Sequence record: MW394390.1
Length of the DNA: 64,000 nucleotides
Source of the DNA: Klebsiella phage vB_KpM_FBKp34
Strand: one strand, 5' to 3'
In this document: positions 13,084-63,869 of the stretch, one piece after another
Numbering within the stretch: the first letter of the stretch is position 1
Layout: every line of letters begins with the position of its first letter
The notes under the pieces: model-generated
Database searches by the model: none
Seen by the model: only the letters and a program-made list of their open reading frames with translations
What the model was told of the DNA's origin: nothing
Program-made: the position numbers and the translations under genes

Positions 13084-13488
13084 CTGCTCTAAAACAATTA
13101 CTGAATGATAATGCTTCTCATTCAAGGTTTATAACAGGTCAACCGCCTGTTTGATAACTGTTACACGTAGGATCCTCGCGCTTTCTGTCGGCTCTGCGAC
13201 ATCGCGCAATCAATAACAAATACGAATTATTATCAGATTTAGAATGATTCTCATTCATGATCAAGTGAGAATAAATCTCATTTGCGTTTACGCATAAGAA
13301 AAATTTTTTGAAAAGGTGCTTTGTCAAGTGAAAAGAGAAAATCTTGTTTAGTATTTTAATGGATTTGCACACATAAATTTTATTAAAAGTAAAGATATTT
13401 ATAACATTATCCATTATATTCTTGACAAATCATTATCGAACATATTTTATTACGTAGCAATTGATTGCAAGTCCAATCATTCAGAAAA

Positions 13489-13666
13489 CGAACATATATA
13501 GAGTAAAGGGAGACTTAAAGCTTTCAGTTGAAAGCTTTTAGGATCACTCTCTATATTGTTCGATAATTTATAAGGTGAGATATTCTCTCATAATGTTCTC
13601 AAGCGAACAATATAGAGAGGAACTCACGACCAAAGGGAGAGTGTTACTTTACTCTATATATGTTCG
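13489..13666. promoter_or_regulatory. nested inverted repeats: 20-bp arms 13489-13508/13647-13666 and 16-bp arms 13547-13562/13604-13619 (shared CGAACAaTATAGAG core); internal AAAGCTTTC-N5-GAAAGCTTT hairpin and TGAGA-N5-TCTCA palindrome at 13576-13590
   Basis: perfect complementarity verified by eye. Confidence 0.7.
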
Positions 13667-42761: not shown

Positions 42762-43277
42762 ATGTTGAAATATAAAGTGATGGATTTGTTATTGGCTGCA
42801 AAAAGTGGAGAAGTAAATGTTATTGCACAACAATGTAACTGTTTTAATGCACGTAAACGTGGGATTGCCCCACTTTTAGATAAAGCTTTCCCGGAAGTCG
42901 CTATTGCAGATGATTCAACTATTAAAGGAGACCCTAAAAAATTTGGAGATTTCTCATATGCCCATTCTCCATTGTATAATTTAAGTATTTATAATTTATA
43001 CGGACAGTGGGGTTGGTGGAAACGTGAGGATGGAAAACCAAATACAGATTTAGATAAGCTTGAATCTTCTTTCAAAGCTATGTCTAAACAGCTAATGCTT
43101 TTTGAAAATCAGGATCTTAAAATTGGACTTCCCAAACTTGGTGCAGGTCTTGGAGGAGCAGAGTGGTCTTCTGTTGAAGATATTATCAAAAAGACATTGT
43201 GTGAAGCCGGGTACAATGTTACCATCTATGTACTTGATGAAGCTGAAATCCCTGAAAATGCCACTGTGATCAAATAA
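42762..43277 (+). CDS. macro domain protein (ADP-ribose binding/hydrolase)
   Basis: VIAQQCNCFNARKRGIAPLL and GLPKLGAGLGGAEW motifs. Confidence 0.65.
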   Translation: MLKYKVMDLLLAAKSGEVNVIAQQCNCFNARKRGIAPLLDKAFPEVAIADDSTIKGDPKKFGDFSYAHSPLYNLSIYNLYGQWGWWKREDGKPNTDLDKLESSFKAMSKQLMLFENQDLKIGLPKLGAGLGGAEWSSVEDIIKKTLCEAGYNVTIYVLDEAEIPENATVIK

Positions 43278-45698: not shown

Positions 45699-46985
45699 AT
45701 GTCTGAGAGTAAAATGCTAATCATGTTTGATTCAAAGAATAATAACAATAAATTCTATGAAGCAACCTTAGATGACGTTGGAAATATTGCAGTTCGTTTT
45801 GGTCGGGTAGGTGGCGGGGTTCAAACTACCTCCTACTCTGGTGGTAAAAAGAAGTTTGACAGTCTTGTTGCATCTAAAATCAAGAAAGGTTATAAAGAAG
45901 CACAACTAGAAGCTGTCTCTGGTGAAACTGGGTTGACTCAAAAAGTTAACGTAGTAGACATTGCACTTAAGCAAATTGATTGTAAAGACGACACAAGTCG
46001 TAATCTTATTCAAGCAATTGCTAAAGCAAACATTCATAATATCACCAGTTCTACCAACATTAAATATGATGAAAAAGATGGTCTGTTTAAGTCTCCTTTA
46101 GGAGTTGTAAAGAAAGCTGCTGTGGAAGAAGCAATGATCCATCTTGGTAATATTGAATCCCTTTTGGATGAATATGAAAAGAGTGGTAAAGGTGAAGATG
46201 AGATCTTAACTTTAAATGATTCTTATTTTGTTCTTATTCCTAATAAAGTTGCAACTACACGTGATAAACGTCACTTGTTGTTTAGTCAGAAAAAGATTGA
46301 TGAACAACGTGAAATTTGTAAAGCACTTCTGGAAACCTTAGACCTTATTGAAGAACTTAAGAAGAATCAGGAAGATAAACCTAAAGAAGAAGTTGAAGTA
46401 GAAAAAATCTTTAATTTTGGTATCTCTCATGTTGAAGATTCTGCTACAATTGATCGTATTGTTAAGTACTACAATGAAAGTAAAAATGCCCAACACGGCG
46501 GTCGCATCATGGGTTCTAAGGTTAAAAATATCTATAAAATTAATCTTGGAAATCAACAAGCACCATTTGATAAAGCCATTACTAAGTATGGAAATGTTCA
46601 TGAACTGTGGCATGGAACACGTGTAGCTAATTTGTTATCTATTTTCTGTAAAGGTTTGATGATGCCTAAGCAATCACCAGGGCAGAAAGCTGGTGCAATG
46701 TTTGCAGACGGTATATATTTCGCTAACCAAAGTTCTAAGAGCATCAACTATTGTGACGGCGGGTACTGGACAGGCGGTTCTGGTAGTGGTAAGGTATACA
46801 TGTTCCTAGCTTCAGTGGCTGTCGGAAATGCTTATACACCTAGAGGTCCAACGAGTCAATTGCCTCCGAAAGGTTATCATTCATATTGGGCGAAGGCTGG
46901 TTACTCTGGAGTCAGAAATGATGAAATCATTGTTTTTGATCTGAGTCAGATTCGTTTAGATTACTTACTTGAAATTGAATATTAA
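45699..46985 (+). CDS. WGR domain + poly(ADP-ribose) polymerase catalytic domain protein
   Basis: N-terminal KFYEATLDD...FGRVGGGVQ...KIKKGY (WGR); C-terminal ELWHGTR, GIYFANQ, NDEIIVFDLSQIRLDYLLEI = PARP H-Y-E triad. Confidence 0.85.
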   Translation: MSESKMLIMFDSKNNNNKFYEATLDDVGNIAVRFGRVGGGVQTTSYSGGKKKFDSLVASKIKKGYKEAQLEAVSGETGLTQKVNVVDIALKQIDCKDDTSRNLIQAIAKANIHNITSSTNIKYDEKDGLFKSPLGVVKKAAVEEAMIHLGNIESLLDEYEKSGKGEDEILTLNDSYFVLIPNKVATTRDKRHLLFSQKKIDEQREICKALLETLDLIEELKKNQEDKPKEEVEVEKIFNFGISHVEDSATIDRIVKYYNESKNAQHGGRIMGSKVKNIYKINLGNQQAPFDKAITKYGNVHELWHGTRVANLLSIFCKGLMMPKQSPGQKAGAMFADGIYFANQSSKSINYCDGGYWTGGSGSGKVYMFLASVAVGNAYTPRGPTSQLPPKGYHSYWAKAGYSGVRNDEIIVFDLSQIRLDYLLEIEY

Positions 46986-47974: not shown

Positions 47975-50900
47975 ATGCACCACCCATACAAAATTATAAA
48001 ACGTGATGGACGCACTGAACAATTTGATGAACGTAAAGTTTACAATGCAGTATATCAAGCAGCACTAGCTAACTCTTCATTATCAATCACAGCAGAACAT
48101 GTTGCTGATCAAATCACAGAACACGTTATTAAAAATCTCAAAGAGAATAAGTCAGTCTCAAATGTTCAAAAAATGATTGAAGATTTCCTTATGTCTAATC
48201 CAAAGACATATGATATAGCCAGAACCTATATTGAGTACAGACATGATAGAGATAAAATTCGTGAAGGAAATGGGAAACTTTATAATGACATCTCTGGCTT
48301 CTTAGAACAAACAGCAGAAGAATTTACTCGTGAGAACGCTAATAAACCCAGCAATGTTGTAAACACGCACAGAGACCTCTTAGCAGGGATTTTAAGTAAG
48401 CATGTAGCATTAACTCAAATACTACCTAAAAACCTCTCAGAATGGCATACAAGCGGTTTTGGGCATATTCATGACCTAGATTATCTAATCAGTCCTCTTA
48501 CAAATTGTCTAGGAAGAGAAACAGCTTTTATCACAAAAGAAGGAACAAAAACGTTTTTCGATTTTAATAGTGGAGATGATGTCCTAGCCTTAACCCATAC
48601 AGGTACTTTTAAGAAGGCAAAAGTTTACAATTATGGGTACGGACTTTTAAATGAAATTACATTAAAACGTGGACGTCTAAGAAAAACAATACGTGCAACA
48701 GCTAATCACAGGTGGTTATTAGAGGATGGCACAGTCACTACTAACCTTAAGGTAGGTGATAAACTACTGAAAACTCCTACAACATATAATAGAGATTGGG
48801 CCACATTGAGCAACTCTGAAAAAAGAGCTTGGTGTTTTGGTTTTGGATATGCAGATGGTGTGAGTAGGATTACACAATGGGGTAATTTTTTTACTATACC
48901 CCTTATTGGTAAAAAACAGGATTATCAAGAATTATTTGAAGATGCTGGATTTAGAGTTACTAAAACAAAGTTGTACTCTGTAGTACATTTAGGTAAATTA
49001 GAAAAATTTTTACCTACAACATTAACCCATACAGAAAATGAGATTTTTTGTTTTGTTGATGGGCTTATAGCAGCAGACGGACATAAAAAATATAGACCTA
49101 AGCTAAATAAAAATATTCCAGCGTCGATTCAGATGACTGGAGAAGAAATAAATGACTTTATACAAACTTGGTTTGAACCTGCTGGGTATTATTTGGGGGC
49201 AACGTTAGATCTTTCCTGTCAAGAAACAAATTATGGTAAAAGAAACGGAAAAACTATAGAATATAAATTAAACCCAGAACAGAACCATATGGCATGGACT
49301 GTCACTGAAATTATCAACACAGGCAAAGAAGAGGAGGTGTGGTGTTTGGAGGTGGAAGAAGATGCAAGTTTTATTCTTTCTAATGGAGTAGTCACAGGTA
49401 ACTGTTGTCTTGTTAACTATCAAGATATGTTAGAAAATGGTTTCCATATTGGAAATGCTTTCATTGAAAAACCTAAATCAATTGGTGTTGCTACTACAGT
49501 GTTGACACAAATTATTCAGGCGGTGGCCTCTAGTCAATATGGTGGACAAACTTGCGCACATATTGATACAGGATTAAAACAGTATGTAGAGTCAACATAC
49601 TATAGGAATGAAGGTTTATTTAATCAATATAATATCTCAGAATATAAAGTAGATGCTTTTAGGAAAACAGAACAAGATGTCTATGATGCAATGCAAACCC
49701 TTATTTATCAGGTTAATACATTAATGAGTGTAAATGGTCAGTCTCCATTCATCACTATTAGTCTTGGTTTAGATACTTCAGAATTTGGTAGAATGATCAC
49801 TCGTAACTATCTAAAAATTCATAAAGAAGGTCTGGGTAAAGATAAAGTAACACCTGTGTTCCCGAAAGTGATTTTCTTTCTTGAAGAAGGTGTAAACATG
49901 CACCCTGATGATCCTAATTATGACCTGAAACAACTAGCAATGGAGTGTTGTGCAGAAAGAATTTATCCAGATTTTATTTCAGTTCCTAGAAATAAACTAG
50001 TTACAAAATCTTCAAAAGGTCATGTTACTAGCATGGGCTGTCGTAGCTTCCTTTCTTATTTTGCTACAGAACAAGGTGAGAAATATGATGGCAGATTTAA
50101 TCTTGGGGTAGTGTCTTTAAACCTACCGATGATTGCCAAGGATTGTACCACCAACGGAAAACTTTTTCTTGAAGAACTTTATAAGCATATGCAAACAGCA
50201 TATGAAGCACATATGCTGAGGATTAATCGCCTTAAGGGAACTAAAGCAAAACAAAATCCTGTGATGTTCGTTGAAGGAGCATTAGCTAGACTCGATCCTG
50301 AAGAAACTATTGACAAACTTTTTTACAAAGGTTATGCTTCAGCAAGTTTTGGTTATGTAGGGCTTTACGAATGTGTAAAAATCCTTTATCCAGAGGTAAC
50401 TTTAGACGAGTACAAGGATTTTGGACAAAAAATTCTTAAATTTATGTCTAATATGGCAGAAGATTATAAAAAGAAAACAGGTGTAGGTTTTGGTCTTTAT
50501 GGAACCCCAGCAGAATCACTTTGCTATAAGTTTGCTAATAAAATTAATGAGAAATTCCCAGGAACTATCGAGAAAGATTACTTGACCAACTCTTTCCATG
50601 TTCCAGTAGACCAAGAAGTAGACCCTTTTACTAAATGGAATGTTGAATCAGGGTTTGACTTTATCAGTTCAGGTGGTAATATAGGTTATGTTGAGACACC
50701 AAATCTGAAACACAACATGCAAGGACTGGAAGCATTAATCAACTATGGATATGAAAATATTCATTACTTTGGGATTAATCAACCTGTTGATAAATGTCTG
50801 AAGTGTGGCTTTCATGGAGAGTTTAAAGCAACAGCAGAAGGCTTTGAATGTCCTGATTGTGGCAATACTGAGGAAGGAACGATCAACGTGATTCGGAGAG

Positions 50901-50992
50901 TCTCAGGTTACTTATCTGCACCTAACAGCAGACCTTTTAATAAGGGTAAGATGCAGGAAGTTGTTCAACGTGTAAAACATACAAATTTATGA
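47975..50992 (+). CDS. nrdD: anaerobic ribonucleoside-triphosphate reductase, intein-containing
   Basis: ATP-cone-like N-term, HIHDLD, C-terminal CLKCG...CPDCG zinc ribbon and glycyl-radical RVSGYL; 1005 aa because of 299-aa insertion. Confidence 0.9.
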   Translation: MHHPYKIIKRDGRTEQFDERKVYNAVYQAALANSSLSITAEHVADQITEHVIKNLKENKSVSNVQKMIEDFLMSNPKTYDIARTYIEYRHDRDKIREGNGKLYNDISGFLEQTAEEFTRENANKPSNVVNTHRDLLAGILSKHVALTQILPKNLSEWHTSGFGHIHDLDYLISPLTNCLGRETAFITKEGTKTFFDFNSGDDVLALTHTGTFKKAKVYNYGYGLLNEITLKRGRLRKTIRATANHRWLLEDGTVTTNLKVGDKLLKTPTTYNRDWATLSNSEKRAWCFGFGYADGVSRITQWGNFFTIPLIGKKQDYQELFEDAGFRVTKTKLYSVVHLGKLEKFLPTTLTHTENEIFCFVDGLIAADGHKKYRPKLNKNIPASIQMTGEEINDFIQTWFEPAGYYLGATLDLSCQETNYGKRNGKTIEYKLNPEQNHMAWTVTEIINTGKEEEVWCLEVEEDASFILSNGVVTGNCCLVNYQDMLENGFHIGNAFIEKPKSIGVATTVLTQIIQAVASSQYGGQTCAHIDTGLKQYVESTYYRNEGLFNQYNISEYKVDAFRKTEQDVYDAMQTLIYQVNTLMSVNGQSPFITISLGLDTSEFGRMITRNYLKIHKEGLGKDKVTPVFPKVIFFLEEGVNMHPDDPNYDLKQLAMECCAERIYPDFISVPRNKLVTKSSKGHVTSMGCRSFLSYFATEQGEKYDGRFNLGVVSLNLPMIAKDCTTNGKLFLEELYKHMQTAYEAHMLRINRLKGTKAKQNPVMFVEGALARLDPEETIDKLFYKGYASASFGYVGLYECVKILYPEVTLDEYKDFGQKILKFMSNMAEDYKKKTGVGFGLYGTPAESLCYKFANKINEKFPGTIEKDYLTNSFHVPVDQEVDPFTKWNVESGFDFISSGGNIGYVETPNLKHNMQGLEALINYGYENIHYFGINQPVDKCLKCGFHGEFKATAEGFECPDCGNTEEGTINVIRRVSGYLSAPNSRPFNKGKMQEVVQRVKHTNL
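48506..49402 (+). mobile_element. intein with LAGLIDADG homing endonuclease domain inside nrdD
   Basis: starts CLGRETAFITKEG after extein ...PLTN, ends ...VVTGN followed by +1 Cys (NCCLVNY); internal GFGYADG and VDGLIAADG motifs. Confidence 0.75.
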
Positions 50993-53652: not shown

Positions 53653-54630
53653 GTGACACATCATTTTGGGTTCCCCCTTCTGGATATTGCAGTTCTTGTT
53701 GGAGTTCTTGCACTATCAATCCTTGTAGATTTCTTTGGACACAAGGAAAATAAAGAGATCGGTATTAAGTCTGCATTGGCTTGGTCTGCATTTTGGATCG
53801 CATTAGCATTTGCATACTATGGTTTTATTTGGGTAGAGTATGGCAAAGAATTTGCCTCTTTGTTTCTGAGTGGGTATGTGCTAGAAAAATCATTGTCTGT
53901 GGATAACTTGATGGTGTTCATGGCAATCTTCGCTAGCTTCGGGATCAAATCGACACACTTACAGCATAAGATTCTTCTTTGGGGTATTGCTGGTGCCATT
54001 GTATTTCGAGGTATCTTTGTGGCAGCAGGTACGGCAATCTTTAATTTACACTGGTTTTTCCAAGTGCTGTTCGGTCTGATTGTAGCATGGTCTGCACTGG
54101 CTATTATCAAAGGCGGCGATGATGAGGAAGATGAAGTTGATTACTCTAAACACTGGGCGACTCGTCTGGTTGGTAAGATTCTTCCTGTTCATCCGGCTCT
54201 AGATGGCGAGAAATTTATCACCATTAAGAATGGGATCAAGTATGCAACTCCGGCTTTGTTGTGTGTCTTTGTAGTGGAGTTTACTGATGTAATTTTCTCC
54301 TTTGACTCTGTCCCGGCTGTAATTGGTGTGACGCAAGAACCTCTGCTGGTTTACTCTGCAATGTTATTTGCAATTCTTGGTCTCCGTGCACTGTTCTTTG
54401 TACTGAGTGTAGCAGTTAAATACTTGGTTCATCTGGAAAAAGCCGTTGCTGTAGTTCTAGTGTTTGTAGGTGCTAAACTGATTTACCATCCTTTTGGTGA
54501 GACACTAAATGCAAAATGGTCTTTCCTGCCACATGATATCTCAGCAAACGTAAGTCTTTGTATTGTACTTGGAACGCTGGCCTTGGGTATTATTGCAAGT
54601 CTGGTTTTTCCTGAGAAAAAAGAAGCTTGA
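53653..54630 (+). CDS. TerC family integral membrane protein (GTG start)
   Basis: multi-TM, YVLEKSLSVDNLMVF signature, second repeat VVEFTDVIFSFDSVPAV. Confidence 0.75.
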   Translation: MTHHFGFPLLDIAVLVGVLALSILVDFFGHKENKEIGIKSALAWSAFWIALAFAYYGFIWVEYGKEFASLFLSGYVLEKSLSVDNLMVFMAIFASFGIKSTHLQHKILLWGIAGAIVFRGIFVAAGTAIFNLHWFFQVLFGLIVAWSALAIIKGGDDEEDEVDYSKHWATRLVGKILPVHPALDGEKFITIKNGIKYATPALLCVFVVEFTDVIFSFDSVPAVIGVTQEPLLVYSAMLFAILGLRALFFVLSVAVKYLVHLEKAVAVVLVFVGAKLIYHPFGETLNAKWSFLPHDISANVSLCIVLGTLALGIIASLVFPEKKEA

Positions 54631-54634
54631 GAAT

Positions 54635-54657
54635 AGCCCCGAAAGGGGCTTTAGTTT
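54635..54657 (+). terminator. rho-independent terminator AGCCCC-GAAA-GGGGCT + TTAGTTT
   Basis: seen. Confidence 0.6.
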
Positions 54658-54674
54658 AAAGAGGAAACTTTAAC

Positions 54675-55037
54675 ATGAATGATATTTTTGATGAAATGGA
54701 AGAATATGCTTGGGCTTTGGGTGATAATGTAAATGCAATGGCTTTACTCCAAGAAAGATACCCACAAACAAACATTCAGATCTTAGAAGTTTCCGATCTA
54801 ATTCTTCCTAAAGGTGTTGTAGCTTGTTGTGGTACGGGCGCAGGGGAAGTAACACCTGTAAAACGTTTAGAAATGGCTTTTGGCTCCAGTTTAAATGGTG
54901 AAATGGAAAATGCTACCTTTGTCCAATTCTGGACTTCACCAAATGCTAAATTATTTGACAACACAACTTGGGAACTTTTCTTCTGGGATCAGGTGAAGGA
55001 TCGAGAGGTACAGTTTGAAGTTCCTGTTGTAGAATAA
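54675..55037 (+). CDS. hypothetical protein
   Basis: 120-aa ORF. Confidence 0.45.
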   Translation: MNDIFDEMEEYAWALGDNVNAMALLQERYPQTNIQILEVSDLILPKGVVACCGTGAGEVTPVKRLEMAFGSSLNGEMENATFVQFWTSPNAKLFDNTTWELFFWDQVKDREVQFEVPVVE

Positions 55038-55146
55038 TGTTGACTTTTGCTAAGACAAGCTTTATAGTTTGTCTTGTTGAAAGAAACAAACCAGTAAGGA
55101 GTAAAAATGTTTGCTGAAGAAGATATTCATTCAGAGATAGAATGGC

Positions 55147-55353
55147 TTGAATTTATTACAGAAAATTGGGAAGGTTAAAATGTTTGATTTGACTTATCAG
55201 TTTGACCCTGAGAGAGTATGTCTATGCCCAATTTGTGATCAACCAATGTTTACTTACGAAGCAGTAACAACTATCGTAGTCGATGATTGTCAATGTATGG
55301 CACACAATTTTTGTGCAATCAATTTCGACGAGGAAGAAGACGATGAAGATTGA
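55147..55353 (+). CDS. Cys-rich small protein with acidic tail
   Basis: CLCPICDQ ... CQCMAHNFC ... EEEDDED. Confidence 0.4.
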   Translation: MNLLQKIGKVKMFDLTYQFDPERVCLCPICDQPMFTYEAVTTIVVDDCQCMAHNFCAINFDEEEDDED

Positions 55354-55528
55354 GATCATTCACTCAGCAGGAACACCTTTTGAGGAAGGTAAACAATATG
55401 ACTTGGTCTACGATAGATATCTTCGTACCTATATGATCCAAGAGTGGGAACATGGTGAGTTATTGGAAACGTGGCTCAATGATTTGATTCATGATGCAGT
55501 TGAGTTTAAAATTATTAAGGAGAGTTAA
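55343..55528 (+). CDS. hypothetical protein
   Basis: ATGA overlap with upstream stop. Confidence 0.4.
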   Translation: MKIEIIHSAGTPFEEGKQYDLVYDRYLRTYMIQEWEHGELLETWLNDLIHDAVEFKIIKES

Positions 55529-55732
55529 ATGCCCAACATGAGCTATTGCCAATTTAGAAATACAGAAGGTGATTTTCGTCAATGTCTTGATGCAATTGGC
55601 AACGCAGAGTCAATTGAAGATTTTTCACAAAGTGAGCAAAACTCTGCGGAAAATTTATATGAAATGGCGAAAGATTATGTCAATTGGTATGAACAATTAT
55701 TAGATCAAGAGGTTGAAGATGAAGATTGTTGA
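55529..55732 (+). CDS. hypothetical acidic protein
   Basis: 67-aa ORF. Confidence 0.45.
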   Translation: MPNMSYCQFRNTEGDFRQCLDAIGNAESIEDFSQSEQNSAENLYEMAKDYVNWYEQLLDQEVEDEDC

Positions 55733-55976
55733 ACAATATGTTTTTGAAGTTGGGGATGTCTTTACAGGTAAAGGTGATGGTTGTTGGTTAGTGCCAAATC
55801 AACGAAGACTCCTTTCAGCACCAGATCACTATCTTTTTGTAAAAGAAGTTGGGATCAATGCAGTTTATCTTTGTGGTGTAGGGTATGCTTATAATTTTTC
55901 ACCAGAAGAGTTGACAGACCATATTAAAAAAGATAATCTCATTTATCTTGGTAATGTTTACAAAGGTAAAAACTAA
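55713..55976 (+). CDS. hypothetical protein
   Basis: 87-aa ORF. Confidence 0.45.
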   Translation: MKMKIVEQYVFEVGDVFTGKGDGCWLVPNQRRLLSAPDHYLFVKEVGINAVYLCGVGYAYNFSPEELTDHIKKDNLIYLGNVYKGKN

Positions 55977-56308
55977 TGAAAATTTTAATTATCTATGAAA
56001 ATATTCCAGAAACAACAGATCTTTTTGTTCTTGAAACTTCTGATTCTGAAGAGATCAAAAATCTGAGCGTCATTCATGGACACTATATTAATGCAGAAGA
56101 GAATGAAAAAATTCTTGACAATTGTACACGGTGGTACTATAAGCTATACGGTGAGACTACTTGGGCTGACAAGGAAGAGTATAGTAAATATGGTGTGCAG
56201 GATAGTGAAGTAGGAAAATATCTTAAAAATAAGATTGACTATCAAGATATCTTAGATGTAAAATCTTTAGATATTGATTATGTAGTTGTAACAGGATTTA
56301 TTTGTTAA
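55976..56308 (+). CDS. hypothetical protein
   Basis: 110-aa ORF. Confidence 0.45.
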   Translation: MKILIIYENIPETTDLFVLETSDSEEIKNLSVIHGHYINAEENEKILDNCTRWYYKLYGETTWADKEEYSKYGVQDSEVGKYLKNKIDYQDILDVKSLDIDYVVVTGFIC

Positions 56309-56328
56309 TTTAGAGGAGAAACACTAAT

Positions 56329-57042
56329 ATGAGTAATAAACTATCACTTGAGAAACGTACTGAGACTGTAAAACTGTCCCTGGAAAAAGCTGGTGTTCAA
56401 CGCAAGGATATTTGTCTCCGTGTAGCGCTTGCACTGGATAAAAGTGGATCAGCAGAAGATTTCTATCGTAATGGTCAATTTGAAGAGTTGGTTGATCGAC
56501 TCCTACCAGTCTCTGCAAATATGGATGATGACGGTACTATTGACACTTGGCTATTCCATACTCGCTCAATGGAGGTTGAACCTGCAACACCTAAAAACTA
56601 TGGCGGATACATCTCTAACGTCATCATGAAGGGTAAATATAAAAACGAGTGGGGTGGTACTAATTATGCTCCAGTGATGAAAGACATTCATCATCATTAC
56701 TTTGGAAAAGAAGAGAAGAAAGGTCTGTTTGGTTTTGGTAAAGCCAAAACTGTCCCTGTAACAGATTCAGATATTCCCGCACTTGTTTTCTTTATTACCG
56801 ATGGTTCTAATAGTGATCGGGTTGAGACTTTGCGACTACTTGACAGTATCAAAGATGAGCCTGTATATTGGATGACAGTAGGTGTTGGTCCAGATAGCTA
56901 CTTCACTTTCCTTCGTGAGATTGCTGAACGTTATGATAATGTAGGATTTGTTAATTTTAACAATCTAAATATTAGTGATGAGCAAATGTATAATGCAATC
57001 ATTGATGGTGAACTTGCAGCATGGATTAATAAGGTCTCCTAA
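56329..57042 (+). CDS. vWA domain protein (TerY-like)
   Basis: MIDAS-like LALDKSGS; FFITDGSNSD; agaggag RBS. Confidence 0.6.
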   Translation: MSNKLSLEKRTETVKLSLEKAGVQRKDICLRVALALDKSGSAEDFYRNGQFEELVDRLLPVSANMDDDGTIDTWLFHTRSMEVEPATPKNYGGYISNVIMKGKYKNEWGGTNYAPVMKDIHHHYFGKEEKKGLFGFGKAKTVPVTDSDIPALVFFITDGSNSDRVETLRLLDSIKDEPVYWMTVGVGPDSYFTFLREIAERYDNVGFVNFNNLNISDEQMYNAIIDGELAAWINKVS

Positions 57043-57109
57043 AAGAGTTGACTTTAAATTTTACTTTGAATATAATATTTAAACTGAATAACTAAGAGAG
57101 GAAATAAAT

Positions 57110-57691
57110 ATGTCACTTAATCTGGAAAAAGGTTCTTCATTGCCAATGGTTAAAGAAGATGGCAAAACTCCACTAAAACGAGTTCGTGTAGAGTTATCCT
57201 GGAATCCTAATACCAATTCATCTTCACATGATTTTGATCTGGATGTTCTTGGCGCAGTCTGTAAGAATGAAAATCTGCAAGCTGTATCAGTTAGTGAAGT
57301 TGCATACTGGGGGCAAAAACAGACTAAAGCAATTAACGTCTCCCCTGATAATCAAACTGGTATTGGTGATGGTGTTGATGAGTTCCTGGATATTAATCTT
57401 GAAAATGTGTCTTCAGACGGAGATCGTATTCCAGTTTTGGTTTATATCTACAATGCACGACCACGAAATCAGAGTTTTGCTCAGGTAGATGGTGCTAGTG
57501 TTGTTCTTCGTGACCTTGACTCAGGTAAAACTATTGGTTCTTGTAATATCTCTGAGAAAGGTTCTTCTATAGATGAGTCGCTTCTTGTTGGTGTATTTGA
57601 GAAACAAGCAGATGGAACTTTTATTTACAACCAAGTGAATGAGTTTTATGATAAGAGTTTTCAAGAATGGGTAGGTGTTTTTACTAACTAA
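57110..57691 (+). CDS. TerD domain protein
   Basis: LEKGSSL...VRVELSWNP...HDFDLDVLG...PDNQTGIGDGVDE...QSFAQVDGASVVLRD matches TerD core. Confidence 0.85.
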   Translation: MSLNLEKGSSLPMVKEDGKTPLKRVRVELSWNPNTNSSSHDFDLDVLGAVCKNENLQAVSVSEVAYWGQKQTKAINVSPDNQTGIGDGVDEFLDINLENVSSDGDRIPVLVYIYNARPRNQSFAQVDGASVVLRDLDSGKTIGSCNISEKGSSIDESLLVGVFEKQADGTFIYNQVNEFYDKSFQEWVGVFTN

Positions 57692-57752
57692 TTAGTTAAA
57701 GGCACTATTGGAGATAGTGCCACTTTTAATCTCGAAAACAGGAGAAAATATT

Positions 57753-58334
57753 ATGGTTTTAAGTCTGGATAAAGGTTCTAAGCTGTCACTAGATAAATTT
57801 CAAGCATCTGATCTGAAAGTATTGCGTGTTGAAATGACTTGGGACGCACCAGAGAAAACGAGTTCTTTCTTTAAGAGCTATGATTATGATCTTGATGTAA
57901 TTGCAGTTATTGTAGACAAAGATAATAAGGCTGTGGATGGCTCTAAACACTTTTGTTTCTTCAACCAACAGGAAACTCCAGCAATCAAAAGTTCTGGAGA
58001 TGATTTAAATGGGGAGGATGGCGGTGAATCTCTCCTGATTACCCTGGATAAAGTTCCTGAAAAAGGTAAACATATTCCAATTATTGTTGACCTTCATAAG
58101 GCTAAGGAACGTAAACAGAACCTTTCTCAAATGAAAGATGGTACGGTTCGTATTCTTAATCATGAAACAGACGAACTTCTTGCAGAAATTAAGATGAATA
58201 CTTTCTCAAGTAATGATACATCTATCTTGTTTGTGGTTGTTAATCGCACGGATACGGGTTTTGAAGTAGAGAACGTTAGTACAGCATACCCTAAGAGTAT
58301 TGTTGACTGGATTGAACTTTACCAAGTACAATAA
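57753..58334 (+). CDS. TerD domain protein (second paralog)
   Basis: MVLSLDKGSKLSL...VEMTWDA...YDYDLDVIA...; aggag RBS; track ORF starts 45 nt earlier. Confidence 0.8.
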   Translation: MVLSLDKGSKLSLDKFQASDLKVLRVEMTWDAPEKTSSFFKSYDYDLDVIAVIVDKDNKAVDGSKHFCFFNQQETPAIKSSGDDLNGEDGGESLLITLDKVPEKGKHIPIIVDLHKAKERKQNLSQMKDGTVRILNHETDELLAEIKMNTFSSNDTSILFVVVNRTDTGFEVENVSTAYPKSIVDWIELYQVQ

Positions 58335-58351
58335 GATCATTTTAAACTGTT

Positions 58352-58377
58352 AGGTGGGCCGATGCCCACCTTTTATT
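58352..58377 (+). terminator. rho-independent terminator GGTGGGC-CGAT-GCCCACC + TTTTATT
   Basis: seen; track ORF 58354 begins inside this hairpin. Confidence 0.6.
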
Positions 58378-58392
58378 AGGAAGGAGATTAAA

Positions 58393-59271
58393 ATGAGTGC
58401 AGACTATAAAAACCTTTTCAATAAACAAAAAGATTATTCTAATCTGTTCTCTGACAGTCAAAAACAAACTAAACAGGAATCAAACATGTCATATAAAAAT
58501 ATATTTGGCAATTCGGTATCTGTTCCCGAAGTTACTAAAATAAAATCAGTTTTCCCTGAAAAACAAATTGATGCACGAGTAAAAGATATTCAAACTATAG
58601 ATGCTAAAATTAGTACCCATGCTGTGATAAGCTGGATAGATAATTTTGATAATAACTTCAAGAAACTCACTACCATCAACCAGGAAGTTTCTCAATGTGA
58701 GTTAGATTTAGCAATGGAATTTACTAGTGGCAGACTTCAAGTACAAACCCTCTTCAATGATATAAAACAGGCTGTTTCCAAGTTAAAGGGACCGCAAAAG
58801 AAGCCTGGGCTACTATCACGTATTTTAGGTTCTAATGAGGAGTTTAAGTTAACTCAGGAAATTATTACCGAAGTTATCCAAGAGATTAAATTAAACTTGG
58901 AACAATTTAAGAACAAGGCCAAATATAACACTAGCATGTTTTTAAAATCAGAAATGAGGGCTATAGAAGCTAAAATTTTGGATTTAAAAAGTGACCTGGA
59001 GTGTGCTATTGTTGCTGCAACTTACATGATAAATAGTGATGATTTTAAGGGAACTGTTAGATTAGAGAAATTAAAACAAGTAAGTGGTTTAACAAATATT
59101 TCAGAATTGCAATTAAAAAATACTTACCAACTTCTTGAGAAAGATCTTGAAGCATACGAGAACTTAAAAAACATGACAATTCCATTTTTGTATGCTAAGA
59201 TCCAAACCTTAATGAGTAGCACTTTAGATTCTGAAGCGCTTAACGTGATTAATGATATTGATAAACTTTGA
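58393..59271 (+). CDS. TelA/KlaA-like toxic-anion-resistance family protein (paralog 1)
   Basis: MSADYKNLFNKQ N-terminus paralogous to next gene; long helical/coiled-coil body; assignment inferred. Confidence 0.4.
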   Translation: MSADYKNLFNKQKDYSNLFSDSQKQTKQESNMSYKNIFGNSVSVPEVTKIKSVFPEKQIDARVKDIQTIDAKISTHAVISWIDNFDNNFKKLTTINQEVSQCELDLAMEFTSGRLQVQTLFNDIKQAVSKLKGPQKKPGLLSRILGSNEEFKLTQEIITEVIQEIKLNLEQFKNKAKYNTSMFLKSEMRAIEAKILDLKSDLECAIVAATYMINSDDFKGTVRLEKLKQVSGLTNISELQLKNTYQLLEKDLEAYENLKNMTIPFLYAKIQTLMSSTLDSEALNVINDIDKL

Positions 59272-59281
59272 GGATTAAATT

Positions 59282-60358
59282 ATGTCATATGGTAATCTAT
59301 TCAATAAAACACAAGCTGCTGAAAATGTTGCAAACAAAAACTCTACAACATTTACTCAACCTGTAAAATCTTTACCTATTTTAAAAGATGCAGAAGGCAA
59401 TACTTATGCAATGGAATTGAGTGAAATTCAAAATTTTGGTATTGTTAAAAATTCAAAACAATCTGAAATTAATAATCAAATCTTATCTAAAACTCTTGTT
59501 GCAGATAGTGGTGTAATGGCACAAGGCTTTACTCAAATTATGGCTCTATCTGAAAAAGTAGATATTGGTTCTTTAACTGATGGCAAAGTTGGTTTCTTAA
59601 AAAGTTTACGTAATAAGTTTATTGATCGTAAAGCTGAAGTGAAAGCTCAATTTACTACTGTGCGTAAACAAATTACAGATGTCGCAGCTAACCTTAAGAC
59701 GAAACTTATTGAAATGGAAGAAGAAGGTAAGTGGTTAGAATCTATGTATAAGGCAAACCTTGAAGAAGTTCGTATGTGGGAGCAAAATAAAATTCTTGTT
59801 AATGATGCACTTGAACAAGCTGAGAGTTACCTACAAAACTTAATTAATACAGATGCCTCCGTAGATCAAATCGAAGAAACTCGAATGAAAGTTAATGCAC
59901 TAAGTAAACAAGCAGATAAAGTAAATAAAATGCACCAACTGAGTGCTATTGCTGCACCAGAGATACGTATGATGCAAGTTACCAACTTCAATAATGTGAA
60001 TAAGTTCAATGATATTCTTGAGTTAACAATCCCATACTGGGAAAAGAAAATGTCCCTGGCATTAAACGCAGAAAATCAGCGACAACAAATTGCTCAAGCA
60101 AAAGTTATGGATGATTTTACTAACAACTTAATTCAAGAAACCGCTAAACAGGTAGGACAAAATATGGTAGATTCGGCTAAAGCAAATCAAAGAGGGATTG
60201 CTGATGTAGATATTATGGTAGAAGCTACTAATGTCATTATCAATTCTATAAAAGAAGTTGTAGAGATTGATAAGAATGGTAATAATGTACGTAAAGAAAA
60301 TGCCAAAAAGATTGAAAAATCTTTGGTAGATATGCAGGATGCATTACGTAGTGTATAA
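59282..60358 (+). CDS. TelA/KlaA-like toxic-anion-resistance family protein (paralog 2)
   Basis: MSYGNLFNK...; helical 358-aa protein with the size and composition typical of TelA; inferred. Confidence 0.45.
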   Translation: MSYGNLFNKTQAAENVANKNSTTFTQPVKSLPILKDAEGNTYAMELSEIQNFGIVKNSKQSEINNQILSKTLVADSGVMAQGFTQIMALSEKVDIGSLTDGKVGFLKSLRNKFIDRKAEVKAQFTTVRKQITDVAANLKTKLIEMEEEGKWLESMYKANLEEVRMWEQNKILVNDALEQAESYLQNLINTDASVDQIEETRMKVNALSKQADKVNKMHQLSAIAAPEIRMMQVTNFNNVNKFNDILELTIPYWEKKMSLALNAENQRQQIAQAKVMDDFTNNLIQETAKQVGQNMVDSAKANQRGIADVDIMVEATNVIINSIKEVVEIDKNGNNVRKENAKKIEKSLVDMQDALRSV

Positions 60359-60374
60359 AATTTTATGTTGACTA

Positions 60375-60406
60375 AAAGGGGCTAATTGCCCCTTTACTAT
60401 TTTTAA
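60375..60406 (+). terminator. rho-independent terminator AAAGGGGC-TAAT-GCCCCTTT + T-run
   Basis: seen. Confidence 0.6.
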
Positions 60407-60422
60407 AATATAAGGAGGACTT

Positions 60423-60932
60423 TTGCTAAAGAAACTGCCAATGATTTTGTTGACAGCGATACTAGCGCTTCAGAACGCTGCTGCGAGCACTTCAAGTAAA
60501 GATAAGCCATTACATACCTGTACTAAGAAAGATTCAACCACGCTCGTTTTGGCGTGCTCTATGTATGCTGAGGCACGTGGAGACGGTGAAAAAGGTATGT
60601 TGATGGTAGGTAATGTAATTTTAAACAGGAAAAATCATGAAGATTACCCCTCTAAAATCAAAAAAGTAGTTTATCAGAAGAATCAATTTTCATACTTAAC
60701 AGGAAGTCCTGTAAGAATTTATGAAAAAGACACCTGGAATAAAGCTAAAAACTTAGCTAAATTTTTGATTTTATTAGAGAATGAAGATCCTTCTCTGAGG
60801 GTATTGCACGACCGAACTAAAGGTGCTATCTTTTATGTCAAGAGAGGTACAAGAGTAGCTTGGTTAAAATCAATGAAAAAGGTTGCAAGCTATAAAGACC
60901 ATGATTTCTATGTTCCAAAATCAGATACATAA
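60423..60932 (+). CDS. SleB-family cell wall hydrolase with signal peptide (TTG start)
   Basis: signal peptide; ACSMYAEARGDG...VGNVILNR...PSKIKKVVYQKNQFS. Confidence 0.65.
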   Translation: MLKKLPMILLTAILALQNAAASTSSKDKPLHTCTKKDSTTLVLACSMYAEARGDGEKGMLMVGNVILNRKNHEDYPSKIKKVVYQKNQFSYLTGSPVRIYEKDTWNKAKNLAKFLILLENEDPSLRVLHDRTKGAIFYVKRGTRVAWLKSMKKVASYKDHDFYVPKSDT

Positions 60933-60944
60933 TGGAGATTAAAA

Positions 60945-61196
60945 ATGGCTGGTTATCACATTAAAGAAATTGAAAAACGTCGTTATGGATCATTAGGTAA
61001 GATTCAGGAGGAAGTAGAAGAACTTCTAGATGCACATCAACAAGGTAGCTACATTATGATGTTGGTAGAACTCTCTGATTTATACGGTGCTATTGAAGGT
61101 TTCATGGAAGAAAACTTTCCTGACATGAAGATTGCAGATCTTAAAAAGTTCTCAGATATCACAAAACGTGCGTTTAAAGAAGGTCATCGATCATGA
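60945..61196 (+). CDS. MazG/HisE-like all-alpha nucleotide pyrophosphohydrolase
   Basis: EEVEELLDA...LVELSDLYGAIEGF two-helix EExxE / E..D pattern; weak. Confidence 0.35.
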   Translation: MAGYHIKEIEKRRYGSLGKIQEEVEELLDAHQQGSYIMMLVELSDLYGAIEGFMEENFPDMKIADLKKFSDITKRAFKEGHRS

Positions 61197-61783
61197 ACAT
61201 AAATCTTGACTTGATCCAAAAAGCTATTGATTGGTATAGCACAGATTGTGTTTTATCAAGCGTACCATACTTAGTGGACCAAGATATTATGAAGTGGACT
61301 TGTCCACCTGGTGTTGTAGATCGTAGAATGACACACTACAATGATAAACAATACGTTGCCAGTGCAGAACAATCTTTCCTTCAGCTAGAGAAAGATGGAG
61401 AGATAACAGATGGGATTAAACCGCTTATTGCATTGACGCCTTGTTATAGAGACGAACCAATTCTTGATGAGACTCATTTTAACATCTTTTTAAAATTAGA
61501 AATTTTTGATTATAACCCTAAAGGTCCAGTAGATTATTCAGTTTTCTGGGCTAAAAGAATGTCTCTATTTTTCCTAGAGTTTGATCTAAAAACAGACATC
61601 ATTCAAACAGATATTGGTTATGATGTGATGTACGGAGACTTAGAGTTAGGAAGTTTTGGAGAAAGAATCTCACCAAAAGGTATCCCTTACGTGTATGGTA
61701 CAGGTCTTGCAGAACCCAGGGCATCTTTAGCATTACAAAGAAATTCTAAAAAGTTGTTGCTTTCTGACTCAAGTGTGTCATAA
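61193..61783 (+). CDS. class II aminoacyl-tRNA synthetase-like catalytic core fragment
   Basis: LTPCYRDEP...ETHFNIFLKLEIF (motif-2-like) and GTGLAEPRASLAL (motif-3-like); inferred. Confidence 0.35.
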   Translation: MNINLDLIQKAIDWYSTDCVLSSVPYLVDQDIMKWTCPPGVVDRRMTHYNDKQYVASAEQSFLQLEKDGEITDGIKPLIALTPCYRDEPILDETHFNIFLKLEIFDYNPKGPVDYSVFWAKRMSLFFLEFDLKTDIIQTDIGYDVMYGDLELGSFGERISPKGIPYVYGTGLAEPRASLALQRNSKKLLLSDSSVS

Positions 61784-61814
61784 TTAGCTCATCAAAACAT
61801 GAGAGGGCTTATTA

Positions 61815-62117
61815 ATGAAACGTACATTAGGTTTTCAAGCAGAAGATTTGATTTTCAAAAGTGAAGAATTCAATATCTTTAATGAGTTCACTACTGAAAT
61901 CTCTGCTACAAAGATATTTGAATACGCCAATGAGATTAAGAATAACTGTTCAGAAGATCAGTATGCGATAGCTTGGGCTTGTGCACTTAAAGGTGCTAGG
62001 GCTGGTCTTGATAATTGGGAAGAGGATGGTGCTCTAGGTGGTATTGAGGATTATATGGATGATGGAATCATAGCCGAACTCTATGACTTTTTCTTTACCT
62101 GTAATGGAGCAGCTTAA
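61815..62117 (+). CDS. hypothetical protein
   Basis: 100-aa ORF. Confidence 0.4.
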   Translation: MKRTLGFQAEDLIFKSEEFNIFNEFTTEISATKIFEYANEIKNNCSEDQYAIAWACALKGARAGLDNWEEDGALGGIEDYMDDGIIAELYDFFFTCNGAA

Positions 62118-62119
62118 TA

Positions 62120-62395
62120 ATGAAATTATCAGATGCACAAATCTACACTTTACGTAGAATGAATTCTGGTACAAGATACTTCATGAGAGGTGATGGTCTC
62201 AAAGGTGAAGAAGATCGAAGTGTAAGATACTCCGTAGACAGGGTAAACTGTAAATCAATCCCTGTGCTCTATGAAAAAGGTCTAGTAGAATTTTGTAGTG
62301 ATTGTTTGAAACTTAAATCTAGTTGGTATAGTATAAGACTTTCATTACTAGGCAAAGAAATCTTACAAGATCTTAAAACATCTGGAGAAAAATAA
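62120..62395 (+). CDS. hypothetical protein
   Basis: 91-aa ORF. Confidence 0.4.
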   Translation: MKLSDAQIYTLRRMNSGTRYFMRGDGLKGEEDRSVRYSVDRVNCKSIPVLYEKGLVEFCSDCLKLKSSWYSIRLSLLGKEILQDLKTSGEK

Positions 62396-63045
62396 TGATT
62401 AAGCATATCTCTTTTGACGTATGGAATACTTTGATCACTGCAAATCCTTTATATAGTGAAATTCGTACTAAAATAATTGCAAAGTATGCAAATGTAACTG
62501 ATCGTGAAGCAGGTACAATGTATCGGAAAGTAAAGAAATATTTAGACCAAAACGCAGAAAAAGGTATTTGTAGTTTTACCTCGACTGCTTGGTATGTTTT
62601 AGGTAAAAATTTAAACATGGAACCAAAAGCAATTACTCAAATGCAACGCGAATGTGAAGAAGCTTTTCTTGCATTCTCACCACGTTTAAATGAAGATTTA
62701 GTTGACCAATTAATAAGCCTTGATGACAAGTATGAACTGAGTATTAAAAGCAATACTAACTTTATTTCAGGAAGGATCTTGTCTGAAGCTGTAGGCTTTG
62801 ATAGAATGCCATGGTGTAGTTTTATGCATTTCTCGGATGAACATCTGCTTTGTAAACCAGACATTTTATTCTTTGCTAAAACTCTGCTTTCTAGTAAGCT
62901 GTCTAACCTAGCAAACTACGAAATTTTGCACATTGGGGATAGTGAAGTTTTTGATGGAAAATGTGTTGACTTAGGATTTAAGTTCTGCCATATTAAAAAC
63001 CCTGAAGACCTTTTAAACAAACTCATTAATGGAGAAGTAATCTAA
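62395..63045 (+). CDS. HAD superfamily hydrolase (dehalogenase-like subfamily)
   Basis: motif I ISFDVWNTLI, motif II LSIKSNTN, motif IV HIGDSEVFDG. Confidence 0.55.
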   Translation: MIKHISFDVWNTLITANPLYSEIRTKIIAKYANVTDREAGTMYRKVKKYLDQNAEKGICSFTSTAWYVLGKNLNMEPKAITQMQRECEEAFLAFSPRLNEDLVDQLISLDDKYELSIKSNTNFISGRILSEAVGFDRMPWCSFMHFSDEHLLCKPDILFFAKTLLSSKLSNLANYEILHIGDSEVFDGKCVDLGFKFCHIKNPEDLLNKLINGEVI

Positions 63046-63869
63046 TGCGTAATGAAACTCAATTCTTTACTCACGCTTTTTCTGAACTGAAATCTGCACC
63101 ATTTTCACCTGAGAAATATTCTCGTTTGAAGTTTGGTAGTGATAAAGTAGCTAAAGAATTTGGTTATGATCTTGCAGACTCATTCTTCAAGCATTATGGT
63201 GATGATTTTATTGAACACAAAGGTGTAGTTATTCCATCACCTTATAATCAAGTTAAGAATGCTGCAACAATCATGTCTGAACATTTCATGGATCGTATGA
63301 ATGACCTGTTGGTTTCTCATGGTGGTTCAAATCTCGAATGGTCCGTCATTAATCGTAAAGTTTCTTATATTAACGACTATGGTTTCCTCGATAAAGAGAA
63401 GCGTAAAGCTTTGATTGATGGAGATGTGTTCCATTTGAACAAAGGTTTTCTTGAAGGTAAGAAACTCATTTTTATCGACGACGTCAATATCACTGGGACG
63501 CATGAAGACAAACTGATTGAAATCTTGGATCATAATGAAATTAAAAATGATGCATATTTCCTGTACTATGCTAAGTACACAAAAGGTGCAGTAGATGCTA
63601 ATATTGAAGCAGCATTGAACTTTGCCGGGATCCGTGATGCACGAGATTATGTTGCATTGACAGCAGAAAAGAACCACCATCTGATTGTGCGTCCTATTAA
63701 GTTTCTGATGAGCCGGGATCCTGCGGAATTTGAAAAAGTTATTAAAGACCTTGACATTGAGTTCATCCAGAAATTATACTATGGTTGCTTAAGTGAAGGT
63801 TATCATAAGATTAAAGAATATCAGATTAACTTTAAATTTCTGATGTGGTATCTTGGTAAAAATAAATAA
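63045..63869 (+). CDS. phosphoribosyltransferase (PRTase) domain protein
   Basis: PRPP-binding loop KLIFIDDVNITGTHED. Confidence 0.7.
   Translation: MRNETQFFTHAFSELKSAPFSPEKYSRLKFGSDKVAKEFGYDLADSFFKHYGDDFIEHKGVVIPSPYNQVKNAATIMSEHFMDRMNDLLVSHGGSNLEWSVINRKVSYINDYGFLDKEKRKALIDGDVFHLNKGFLEGKKLIFIDDVNITGTHEDKLIEILDHNEIKNDAYFLYYAKYTKGAVDANIEAALNFAGIRDARDYVALTAEKNHHLIVRPIKFLMSRDPAEFEKVIKDLDIEFIQKLYYGCLSEGYHKIKEYQINFKFLMWYLGKNK

Follow-up and report, generated by a model that had tools for sequence, protein, structure and literature searches.

The 64,000-nucleotide stretch of DNA analysed here (the window; sequence record MW394390.1) comes from Klebsiella phage vB_KpM_FBKp34 (phiKp34), a virulent Klebsiella myovirus with a genome of 141,376 bp, and carries between positions 53653 and 63869 a cluster of Ter-type genes. 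Sequence comparison indicates that this cluster is a mosaic, in which a mobile TerD-TerD-gp134-TelA block stands together with TerC, vWA and HAD/PRTase genes typical of the phage lineage. All 19 open reading frames (ORFs) of the interval are co-directional on the plus strand, where the Ter genes follow one another in the order TerC, vWA, TerD1, TerD2, gp134 and TelA, with a HAD/PRTase_3 pair further downstream (Table 1). The six Ter-type ORFs proposed in an earlier sequence-only reading of this DNA were all confirmed in position and strand. Both this specific cluster and the general phenomenon are already in the literature; what is added here is modest: a refinement of annotation, namely the pairing of gp134 with TelA and a motif shared by the two proteins, and a clearer view of the mosaic origin.

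Pfam, with scores judged against its curated cut-offs, recovers TerC, both TerD paralogs, the vWA protein and the TelA protein at 59282, all above threshold, and a PHROG family exists for every member of the cluster. The two TerD paralogs called from the letters alone are borne out: TerD1 (PF02342, E 4.6e-25, 88.6 bits against a cut-off of 25.3) and TerD2 (E 7.6e-32, 110.7 bits against the same cut-off) are 30% identical to one another (E 1e-23), and both match the solved structures 2KXT/2KXV, which are those of K. pneumoniae TerD, and 3IBZ with E values of 1e-12 to 1e-15 (8.1e-16 for TerD1 and 1.1e-15 for TerD2 against 2KXT). We take DxDLD and GDN(R/L)TG(E/A)GDGDDE to be the Ca2+-binding motifs of K. 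pneumoniae TerD. In TerD1, DFDLD and PDNQTGIGDGVDE are aligned opposite DFDLD and GDNRTGEGDGDDE of the K. pneumoniae protein, with most positions kept, while in TerD2 the acidic motifs, DYDLD and GDDLNGEDGG--E, are partly kept, with a gap.

The membrane protein at 53653 is likewise a TerC family member, as proposed (PF03741, E 5e-41, 140.8 bits against a cut-off of 27.8), and can be placed more narrowly by NCBIfam TIGR03718 (TerC/Alx), which it matches over residues 12-321 with 321.8 bits against a cut-off of 246.4. It is 33% identical over its full length to the E. coli Mn2+ exporter Alx by BLASTP. The motif test for TerC/Alx proteins calls for two acidic re-entrant motifs, E-K-S-L-S-x-D-N and D-x-I-F-x-x-D-S-x-P-A, and both are kept (EKSLSVDN and DVIFSFDSVPA); in the alignment with E. 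coli Alx, LEKSLSVDN and TDVIFSFDSVPAV of the phage protein stand opposite IEKSLAVDN and SDVIFAVDSIPAI. An upstream yybP-ykoY riboswitch is typical of bacterial alx regulation, although it is no criterion of the protein family. A scan of the whole window at Rfam gathering thresholds matched no family, this Mn2+ riboswitch included, and riboswitch control of the Alx-type TerC was rejected on that ground.

The protein at 56329, which had been called a vWA(TerY) protein, is indeed a vWA protein with a MIDAS pattern, but the TerY label does not hold. It matches the Pfam family vWA-TerF-like (PF10138, E 2.6e-38, 132.6 bits against a cut-off of 29.4) and phrog_5359 (E 1.8e-62), and its translation shows the MIDAS-type DKSGS, GGTNY and ITDGS (the pattern DxSxS...T...D). 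Pfam finds no TerY_C domain in it, the ORFs scanned yielded neither kinase nor phosphatase and PADLOC returned no TerY-P match, so that the locus does not qualify as a TerY-P system. Homologues of the vWA protein occur in 198 phage records; this count and those given below for TelA of either type, gp134, TerD2 and PRTase_3 were obtained by tblastn against a collection of 50,697 records.

Table 1. Genes, motif-bearing stretches and candidate transcription signals of the Ter-type cluster in the phiKp34 window
Feature	Position	Strand	Basis
TerC family inner-membrane protein, Alx subfamily (gp124)	53653..54630	+	Pfam TerC, TIGR03718
Terminator-like hairpin after TerC	54635..54650	+	-12.1 kcal/mol, z -3.3
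Stand-alone vWA protein, TerF C-terminal type, MIDAS motif (gp131)	56329..57042	+	Pfam vWA-TerF-like, phrog_5359
Sigma-70-like promoter, TTGACT-17-TATAAT, upstream of TerD1	57048..57076	+	11/12 consensus positions; consensus match only
TerD paralog 1 (gp132)	57110..57691	+	Pfam TerD, PDB 2KXT
Terminator-like hairpin after TerD1	57701..57721	+	-12.4 kcal/mol, z -3.9
TerD paralog 2 (gp133 = QQV91804.1, exact match)	57753..58334	+	Pfam TerD, PDB 2KXT
Terminator-like hairpin after TerD2	58352..58371	+	-14.9 kcal/mol
gp134 ('X'; QQV91776.1 = vBKpMFBKp34_134, exact match)	58393..59271	+	no Pfam/NCBIfam family; phrog_13312
Motif-bearing stretch of gp134	58393-58510	+	motif search
TelA family protein (gp135 = QQV91763.1, exact match)	59282..60358	+	Pfam TelA, phrog_5890
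Motif-bearing stretch of TelA	59282-59305	+	motif search
Terminator-like hairpin after TelA	60375..60395	+	-14.1 kcal/mol, z -3.2
Atypical HAD-fold hydrolase, upstream half of HAD/PRTase pair	62395..63045	+	phrog_14393 E 1.7e-86
ComF-like phosphoribosyltransferase, PRTase_3; start overlaps HAD stop codon	63045..63869	+	Pfam PRTase_3

Of the two TelA-like paralogs that had been proposed, only the second is a TelA protein by family search. TelA (gp135) aligns with positions 14-330 of the 332 in PF05816 (E 1e-34, 120.6 bits against a cut-off of 30) and matches phrog_5890, annotated 'tellurite resistance' (E 1.4e-61); it has homologues in 124 phage records. No solved structural relative of it was found by sequence, and its AF2 model (pLDDT 62.1) was too poor for a structure search. 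The first protein, gp134, belongs to no Pfam or NCBIfam family and to a PHROG of unknown function, has no TerB-type domain in Pfam, and resembles TelA by profile-profile comparison only. Pfam TelA was matched by none of 34 gp134-family members, even at an E value of 0.1. The ATG at 58393 is taken as the true start of gp134 because the hairpin at 58352 overlaps the alternative GTG at 58354.

The gp134 family is rare, with nine close homologues, 27 representatives among 1.84 billion proteins and homologues in 25 phage records; a scan of 185,579 bacterial and archaeal species genomes, one per species, gave no relative, and the family has so far been seen only in phages or phage-like contigs. Its relationship to TelA emerges from several comparisons. 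By BLASTP, gp134 and gp135 align with a non-significant E value of 0.12, but colinearly. The hhalign probability of the pair was 40%, 20% and 72% as the profiles changed, the last value being reached with deeper profiles on both sides, and the best alignment (E 3.4e-5) spans 172 colinear columns with a score of 44.4, whereas 21 reversed or block-shuffled controls scored at most 24.7. The AF2 model of gp134 (pLDDT 73.5) is an elongated all-helical bundle over residues 60-292, with residues 1-55 disordered, and a Foldseek search with it against viral models returned jumbo-phage gp134 homologues first and then phage TelA (E ~0.05, TM-score 0.2-0.4). These profile and structural comparisons, while falling short of proof, suggest that gp134 is likely to be a strongly diverged, C-terminally shorter paralog of TelA. 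A link to KlaA was also considered: a KlaA-like protein upstream of a plasmid-borne TelA matches gp134 weakly (hhalign 21%) and is kept as a lead only. No YceG is present at the Jeotgalibacillus plasmid locus.

The association of gp134 with TelA is constant in gene order. In all 12 loci examined (the window, KP13-16, XaC1, GAP32 and the loci designated L006, L007, L008 and L013-L017), the gp134 homologue immediately precedes TelA, from which 2-94 nucleotides separate it. The two proteins also share an N-terminal motif. Homologues of gp134 all start with MS[AT]DYKNLF, and the first 38 residues of the phiKp34 protein hold three Y-x-N-[LI]-F motifs (YKNLF, YSNLF and YKNIF), while TelA begins with MSYGNLF, a single copy of the same type. 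A six-frame translation of the window contains eight instances of Y-x-N-[LIM]-F, four of them in gp134 and TelA. The motif is invariant in close homologues and degenerate (W/Y/F-x-N/D-L/M/I-F, in two to four copies) in gp134-family members of about 20% identity. The presence of the motif is coupled between the neighbours: where gp134 carries it, the adjacent TelA N-terminus has a similar or weaker variant (six lineages; besides the window, the motif was noted in L003, L006, L008, L013, L014 and L017), and where gp134 lacks it (L015, L016 and GAP32), TelA does too. Adjacency to TerD tracks the motif imperfectly, because L015 has TerD and no motif.

The shared motif suggests docking of both proteins to a common partner or to the membrane. 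A broader proposal, which we put forward tentatively and hold with more doubt than confidence, is that gp134-family proteins are strongly diverged TelA paralogs and obligate hetero-partners of TelA, that co-evolving aromatic motifs at the N-termini of both (Y/W/F-x-N/D-L/M-F; TelA has one, gp134 two to four) would anchor them to a single common partner or to the membrane, and that TerD-TerD-gp134-TelA would be a mobile module complete in itself, which passes between unrelated phages and remodels the inner-membrane surface of the infected cell.

The four-gene block is common to the 141-kb Klebsiella phage and to XaC1, a Xanthomonas jumbo phage of 349 kb, whose cassette (XaC1_429-434) reads vWA, TerC/DUF475, TerD, TerD, X and TelA. 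Along the block, the amino-acid identities are 76% (75.6% between TerD1 and the first TerD of XaC1), 70% (TerD2 and XaC1_432), 55% and 66%, and the order TerD-TerD-X-TelA and the N-terminal Y-x-N-L-F motifs are alike; in contrast, the vWA proteins are only 28.5% identical and the TerC of XaC1 is of another subfamily (DUF475). Since a block at 55-76% identity is found in such different phages, it moves and is kept as a unit, and since the hosts and backbones of phiKp34 and XaC1 are unrelated, horizontal transfer of the four genes is indicated. Very divergent phage contigs (XaC1, L006/L007, L008 and L013) retain TerD-TerD-gp134-TelA in this order next to vWA and TerC. The block is embedded variously: L013 has TerD-TerD-X-TelA-vWA-TerC, whereas L008, a metagenomic relative of 153 kb, carries in contiguous order TerC, three small ORFs, vWA, one small ORF, TerD, TerD, gp134, TelA, HAD, PRTase_3 and Band_7. 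The TerC is of Alx type in phiKp34 and of DUF475 type in XaC1, L006 and L013.

The remaining genes point to the phage's own lineage. Klebsiella phage KP2025, which has the partial Ter set of Stephanstirmvirinae-type phages (phAPEC8/VEcB/KP2025-like), shares with phiKp34 the TerC, the TerF-type vWA (37-40% identity in such phages; 40% in KP2025) and HAD/PRTase_3 in the same genome region. In KP2025, the sole relative of this type compared gene by gene, this region yielded neither a TerD nor a gp134 homologue, and the TelA of KP2025 belongs to a different, very divergent lineage, with 18% identity to phiKp34 TelA and unrelated to it at BLAST level. TelA of the KP2025/phAPEC8 type occurs in 188 phage records and homologues of TerD2 in 29; a partial Ter set is thus widespread in related Phapecoctavirus/Justusliebigvirus phages, and the TerD-containing version is rarer. 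Identity to KP2025 is uneven, at 95% for TerC and 93.5% for HAD but 54% for PRTase and 40% for vWA, and this points to recent recombination of gene-sized segments among Klebsiella phages that otherwise diverge.

That the region might be host DNA mis-assembled into a phage contig was ruled out. The GC content of the window is 0.33-0.38, is no different in the Ter region from the remainder and fits the 36.0% published for phiKp34 (PMC8386662); the complete genome of Klebsiella phage KP13-16 (Stephanstirmvirinae) keeps the same arrangement at 97.8% nucleotide identity; and the cluster proteins recur on more than 10 independent contigs of ~140 kb. Between TerC and vWA, KP13-16 has a gene for a 416-residue RNA ligase (L001 7455-8705; PHA02142 OB-fold plus RNA_ligase), at the position of which phiKp34 has two small ORFs (window ~55040-55530), an indel within the cluster of 98%-identical phages.

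From protein identities, conservation of key motifs, gene order, mobility of the block and hairpins after individual genes, all of which are observed, more than one function can be envisaged. The one we prefer, which we regard as plausible though somewhat short of probable, is that a membrane-associated Ter complex gives the infected cell a phage- and colicin-exclusion phenotype, by which the resident phage excludes superinfecting phages. In the infected cell the proteins would come together on the cytoplasmic side of the inner membrane, where TerC would alter ion flux, TerD and vWA would serve as metal- or ligand-binding sensors or adaptors, and TelA and gp134 would form a sub-membrane helical scaffold. 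The whole set would reproduce the phage- and colicin-exclusion phenotype of plasmid and chromosomal Ter determinants, and superinfecting phages, perhaps also membrane-damaging agents, would be excluded until lysis. The HAD/PRTase_3 pair may supply a nucleoside-like ligand, which is the weakest step of the scheme. The presence of the TerC motifs, the MIDAS pattern and the TerD acidic loops supports this function, as do the larger plaques formed after terC deletion in K. pneumoniae (PMC12054061) and the phage and colicin resistance conferred by Ter determinants (Whelan 1995, as cited in PMC12054061). The retention of the gene order in divergent contigs, and of the block at 55-76% identity in two very different phages, speaks for selection on the set and so for this function too, as does the earlier proposal that phage Ter systems act against superinfecting phages (PMC7824862).

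Several observations weigh against superinfection exclusion. No TerB domain was found in any ORF scanned between 53653 and 63869, and the cluster lacks TerD proteins of the TerA/TerZ/TerE/TerF type known from the classical operon; with two TerD, one TerC, one vWA and no TerB, it does not have the make-up of a classical terZABCDEF operon. None of the ten proteins tested matched a PADLOC defence model, and TerY-P or any other catalogued defence system was rejected for this reason. The Ter genes lie in the nucleotide-metabolism region, and their expression would be early or middle to judge from position and consensus promoter matches only. The searchable literature yielded no experiment on a Ter cluster of any phage.

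The enzyme pair gives further points of the same kind. PRTase_3 is securely assigned (Pfam E 1.5e-52, 179 bits against a cut-off of 28.7), whereas the Pfam Hydrolase and NCBIfam HAD matches of its partner are weak and below cut-off. Across six homologues of the HAD-fold protein, D8, W10, T12, S119, N120, K154, G181, D182 and D187 are invariant, motif I (S-x-D-V-W-N-T) is present in 6/6, and the nucleophile Asp, the Lys and motif IV are kept; Trp, however, takes the place of the Asp+2 general acid of HAD phosphatases, which makes a plain phosphatase activity doubtful. PRTase_3 homologues occur in 156 phage records, with HAD directly upstream in every neighbourhood examined, so that this fixed unit is found in 156 records as against 29 with a TerD homologue. 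In other genomes it is mostly found apart from Ter genes, in the company of nucleotide- or NAD-related genes (L009, L010 and L011). Brevundimonas and Rhizobium phages have it unlinked to Ter genes, the Rhizobium pair being near an NMN adenylyltransferase/Nudix gene. A scan of bacteria for linkage of PRTase_3 to Ter genes gave a single Fibrobacterota locus, TauE-HAD-PRTase, with no Ter genes. On the other side, a PRTase and a HAD-fold enzyme encoded together are what characterizes the Ter-associated module: published work describes both as constant in the Ter biosynthetic module (PMC7824862, PMC11994780), and in Bacillus ter clusters they lie between terC and yceG-yceH/telA (PMC11994780). In L008 the two genes come immediately after TelA; in phiKp34 they lie no more than 2 kb from TelA, and in KP2025 no more than 1.2 kb from TerC. 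The likeness to bacterial Ter/yce loci with a nucleoside-like metabolite module, drawn in the sequence-only reading, is apt, with PRTase_3 and the HAD-fold protein at the end of the interval, and the pair is possibly linked to the Ter genes.

The Alx-type TerC also lends itself to a different explanation, in which a Mn2+/cation exporter together with TerD, vWA and TelA would keep up metal or envelope homeostasis or oxidative-stress resistance in the dying host, sustaining replication and burst, and other phages would not be the target. We think this possible, but rather unlikely. It draws on the placement of TerC above the cut-off of the Alx Mn2+-exporter subfamily with the transporter motifs kept, on the contribution of K. 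pneumoniae terC to Zn(II) and Mn(II) resistance (PMC12054061), on the protection of B. anthracis against H2O2 by yceGH (as cited in PMC11994780) and on the position of the cluster beside genes for the metallo-/radical enzymes NrdD and NrdG; the 95% identity of TerC between otherwise divergent Klebsiella phages further suggests that it is useful on its own. This explanation does not account for why TerD-TerD-gp134-TelA travels as a block without a fixed type of TerC, and the empty Rfam scan leaves it with no metal-responsive riboswitch or regulator in the window.

Many K. pneumoniae strains carry ter operons, and the phage proteins could be directed at these. In such a counter-defence they would mimic or poison host Ter or another nucleotide-signal defence, TerD sequestering, or HAD/PRTase altering, a nucleoside-like signal. 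In K. pneumoniae, plaques are made smaller by the ter operon of the host (PMC12054061), the phage has only a subset of the components, which could act as dominant-negative subunits, and NAD/ADP-ribose-type neighbours are present in the window (PARP-like at 45699-46985, macro-like at 42762-43277) as in KP2025, where a macro domain gene comes after the HAD/PRTase pair. We nevertheless consider counter-defence improbable: the cassette is found in phages of Xanthomonas, Pseudomonas, Caulobacter and Rhizobium, not all of which are hosts known to carry ter operons, and the phage TerDs are only modestly similar to K. pneumoniae TerD (~61 bits, E ~1e-15) and thus no close mimics. A determinant of genuine resistance to tellurite or toxic anions, conferred on the host cell, deserves next to no credence. 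The family names and annotations read 'tellurite resistance', and TelA and TerC/TerD do contribute to it in bacteria (PMC12054061, PMC11994780); but the phage is virulent and kills the cell (PMC8386662), the operon is incomplete, lacking TerB, and the authors who described PhiPsa374-like phages were likewise negative (PMC9796965). We do not regard resistance to tellurite in itself as what is under selection.

The idea that strong terminators punctuate the cluster stands in part. There are 11 terminator-like hairpins, an enrichment over the 4.8 +/- 2.6 of shuffled sequence, and four GC-rich ones (-12.1 to -14.9 kcal/mol, z -2.8 to -3.9) lie in plus-strand intergenic gaps after TerC, TerD1, TerD2 and TelA. 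The word 'strong' is somewhat generous, as the T-runs are imperfect. Promoter-like sites are not enriched across the region (49 against 42.9 +/- 5.7 in shuffles).

Five genes that are unrelated to the Ter set lie between TelA and the HAD/PRTase pair. The product of the gene at 60423-60932 (+), a SleB-type cell-wall hydrolase (Hydrolase_2, E 3.9e-19) for which an N-terminal signal peptide is predicted, may be an endolysin or an envelope-modifying enzyme; a homologue of 46% identity lies 1.4 kb downstream of PRTase in L008. This gene and a weakly MazG-like ORF at 60945 were rejected as Ter members since neither is conserved beside TelA in XaC1 or L006. The ORF at 61193-61783 (+) encodes a minimal class II aminoacyl-tRNA-synthetase-like core of 196 residues, closest to SerRS (PDB 2DQ3, E 8.5e-6), with the motifs TPCYRDE and GTGLAEPR and no tRNA-binding domain. 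Homologues of it were found in 264 phage records, under names that vary between histidyl- and seryl-tRNA synthetase; elsewhere the gene stands 5-7 kb away from PRTase, and it looks like a neighbour rather than a Ter member. In L008, a Band_7 (SPFH/stomatin-like) membrane-scaffold gene (12622-13566) directly follows TelA-HAD-PRTase_3; no homologue of it was found in the window.

Upstream of the cluster, a PARP1-like protein (45699-46985, +) has WGR, PARP regulatory and PARP catalytic domains (catalytic E 9.7e-25) and homologues in only 8 of the 50,697 phage records, Xanthomonas and Stenotrophomonas jumbo phages among them. The ORF at 42762-43277 (+) is 42% identical to a macro-domain protein of KP2025, and the two genes suggest an ADP-ribose theme upstream of the Ter genes. 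The anaerobic ribonucleotide reductase NrdD (47975-50992, +) has 1005 residues, including an insertion of 298 residues (178-475) that starts with Cys and ends in ...TGN|C. NrdD of KP13-16 has 706 residues and lacks the insertion, the flanks being 90-92% identical. The Pfam Intein_splicing match is weak (31.6 bits, below the cut-off of 35.8), and the insertion is most likely an intein.

The view that such an ensemble is unusual in a lytic phage did not hold, since most of it has been described, in phiKp34 itself and in other phages. The phiKp34 paper, published in 2021, lists terC (gp124), a TerF-type vWA (gp131), terD (gp132/gp133) and telA (gp135), with a numbering from gp124 to gp131 that fits the six small ORFs found here between TerC and vWA, and it discusses the Ter genes as having a possible anti-viral function; it leaves gp134 unassigned, and in the available part of it HAD/PRTase_3, terminator punctuation and an XaC1-like origin of the block are not mentioned (PMC8386662). 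PhiPsa374-like Pseudomonas phages carry terC, terD, terF and telA, for which their authors judged tellurite resistance unlikely (PMC9796965). Ter determinants are widespread, are linked to virulence plasmids in Klebsiella and E. coli O157 and are still without a mechanism. The recurrence in virulent phages of a compact subset (TerC, vWA, two TerD, gp134, TelA and sometimes PRTase and HAD) marks a minimal functional core, for the testing of which a phage is an easy genetic system.

The closest general framework is the catalogue of phage Ter systems of Iyer et al. 2021 (PMC7824862), which comprises PRTase, HAD, TerD, TerC, TerF-vWA and TelA, with Acinetobacter phage ME3, Caulobacter jumbo phages and a stand-alone TelA in GAP32-like jumbo phages as examples, also notes such systems in some tailed phages that are related but smaller, and proposes superinfection exclusion, with the systems used in competition against superinfecting phages. 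The phiKp34 cluster resembles these systems in its list of components and in being carried by a large virulent tailed phage; it differs in that the phage, at 141 kb, is not a jumbo phage, that its TerC is of Alx type and not the DUF475 of XaC1-like phages, and that the five unrelated genes described above separate TelA from HAD/PRTase. With the bacterial ter/yce loci (terZABCDEF of R478 and K. pneumoniae; Bacillus yceCDEFGH, including the variant with a biosynthetic module), phiKp34 shares TerD paralogs, TerC, TelA (YceH) and PRTase/HAD, while it is without TerB, an ATP-grasp enzyme, a C-C lyase and the PP2C/kinase TerY module. In the bacterial loci, too, a gene other than TelA stands directly upstream of TelA, namely yceG in Bacillus and klaA in kilA operons, as gp134 does in the phages.

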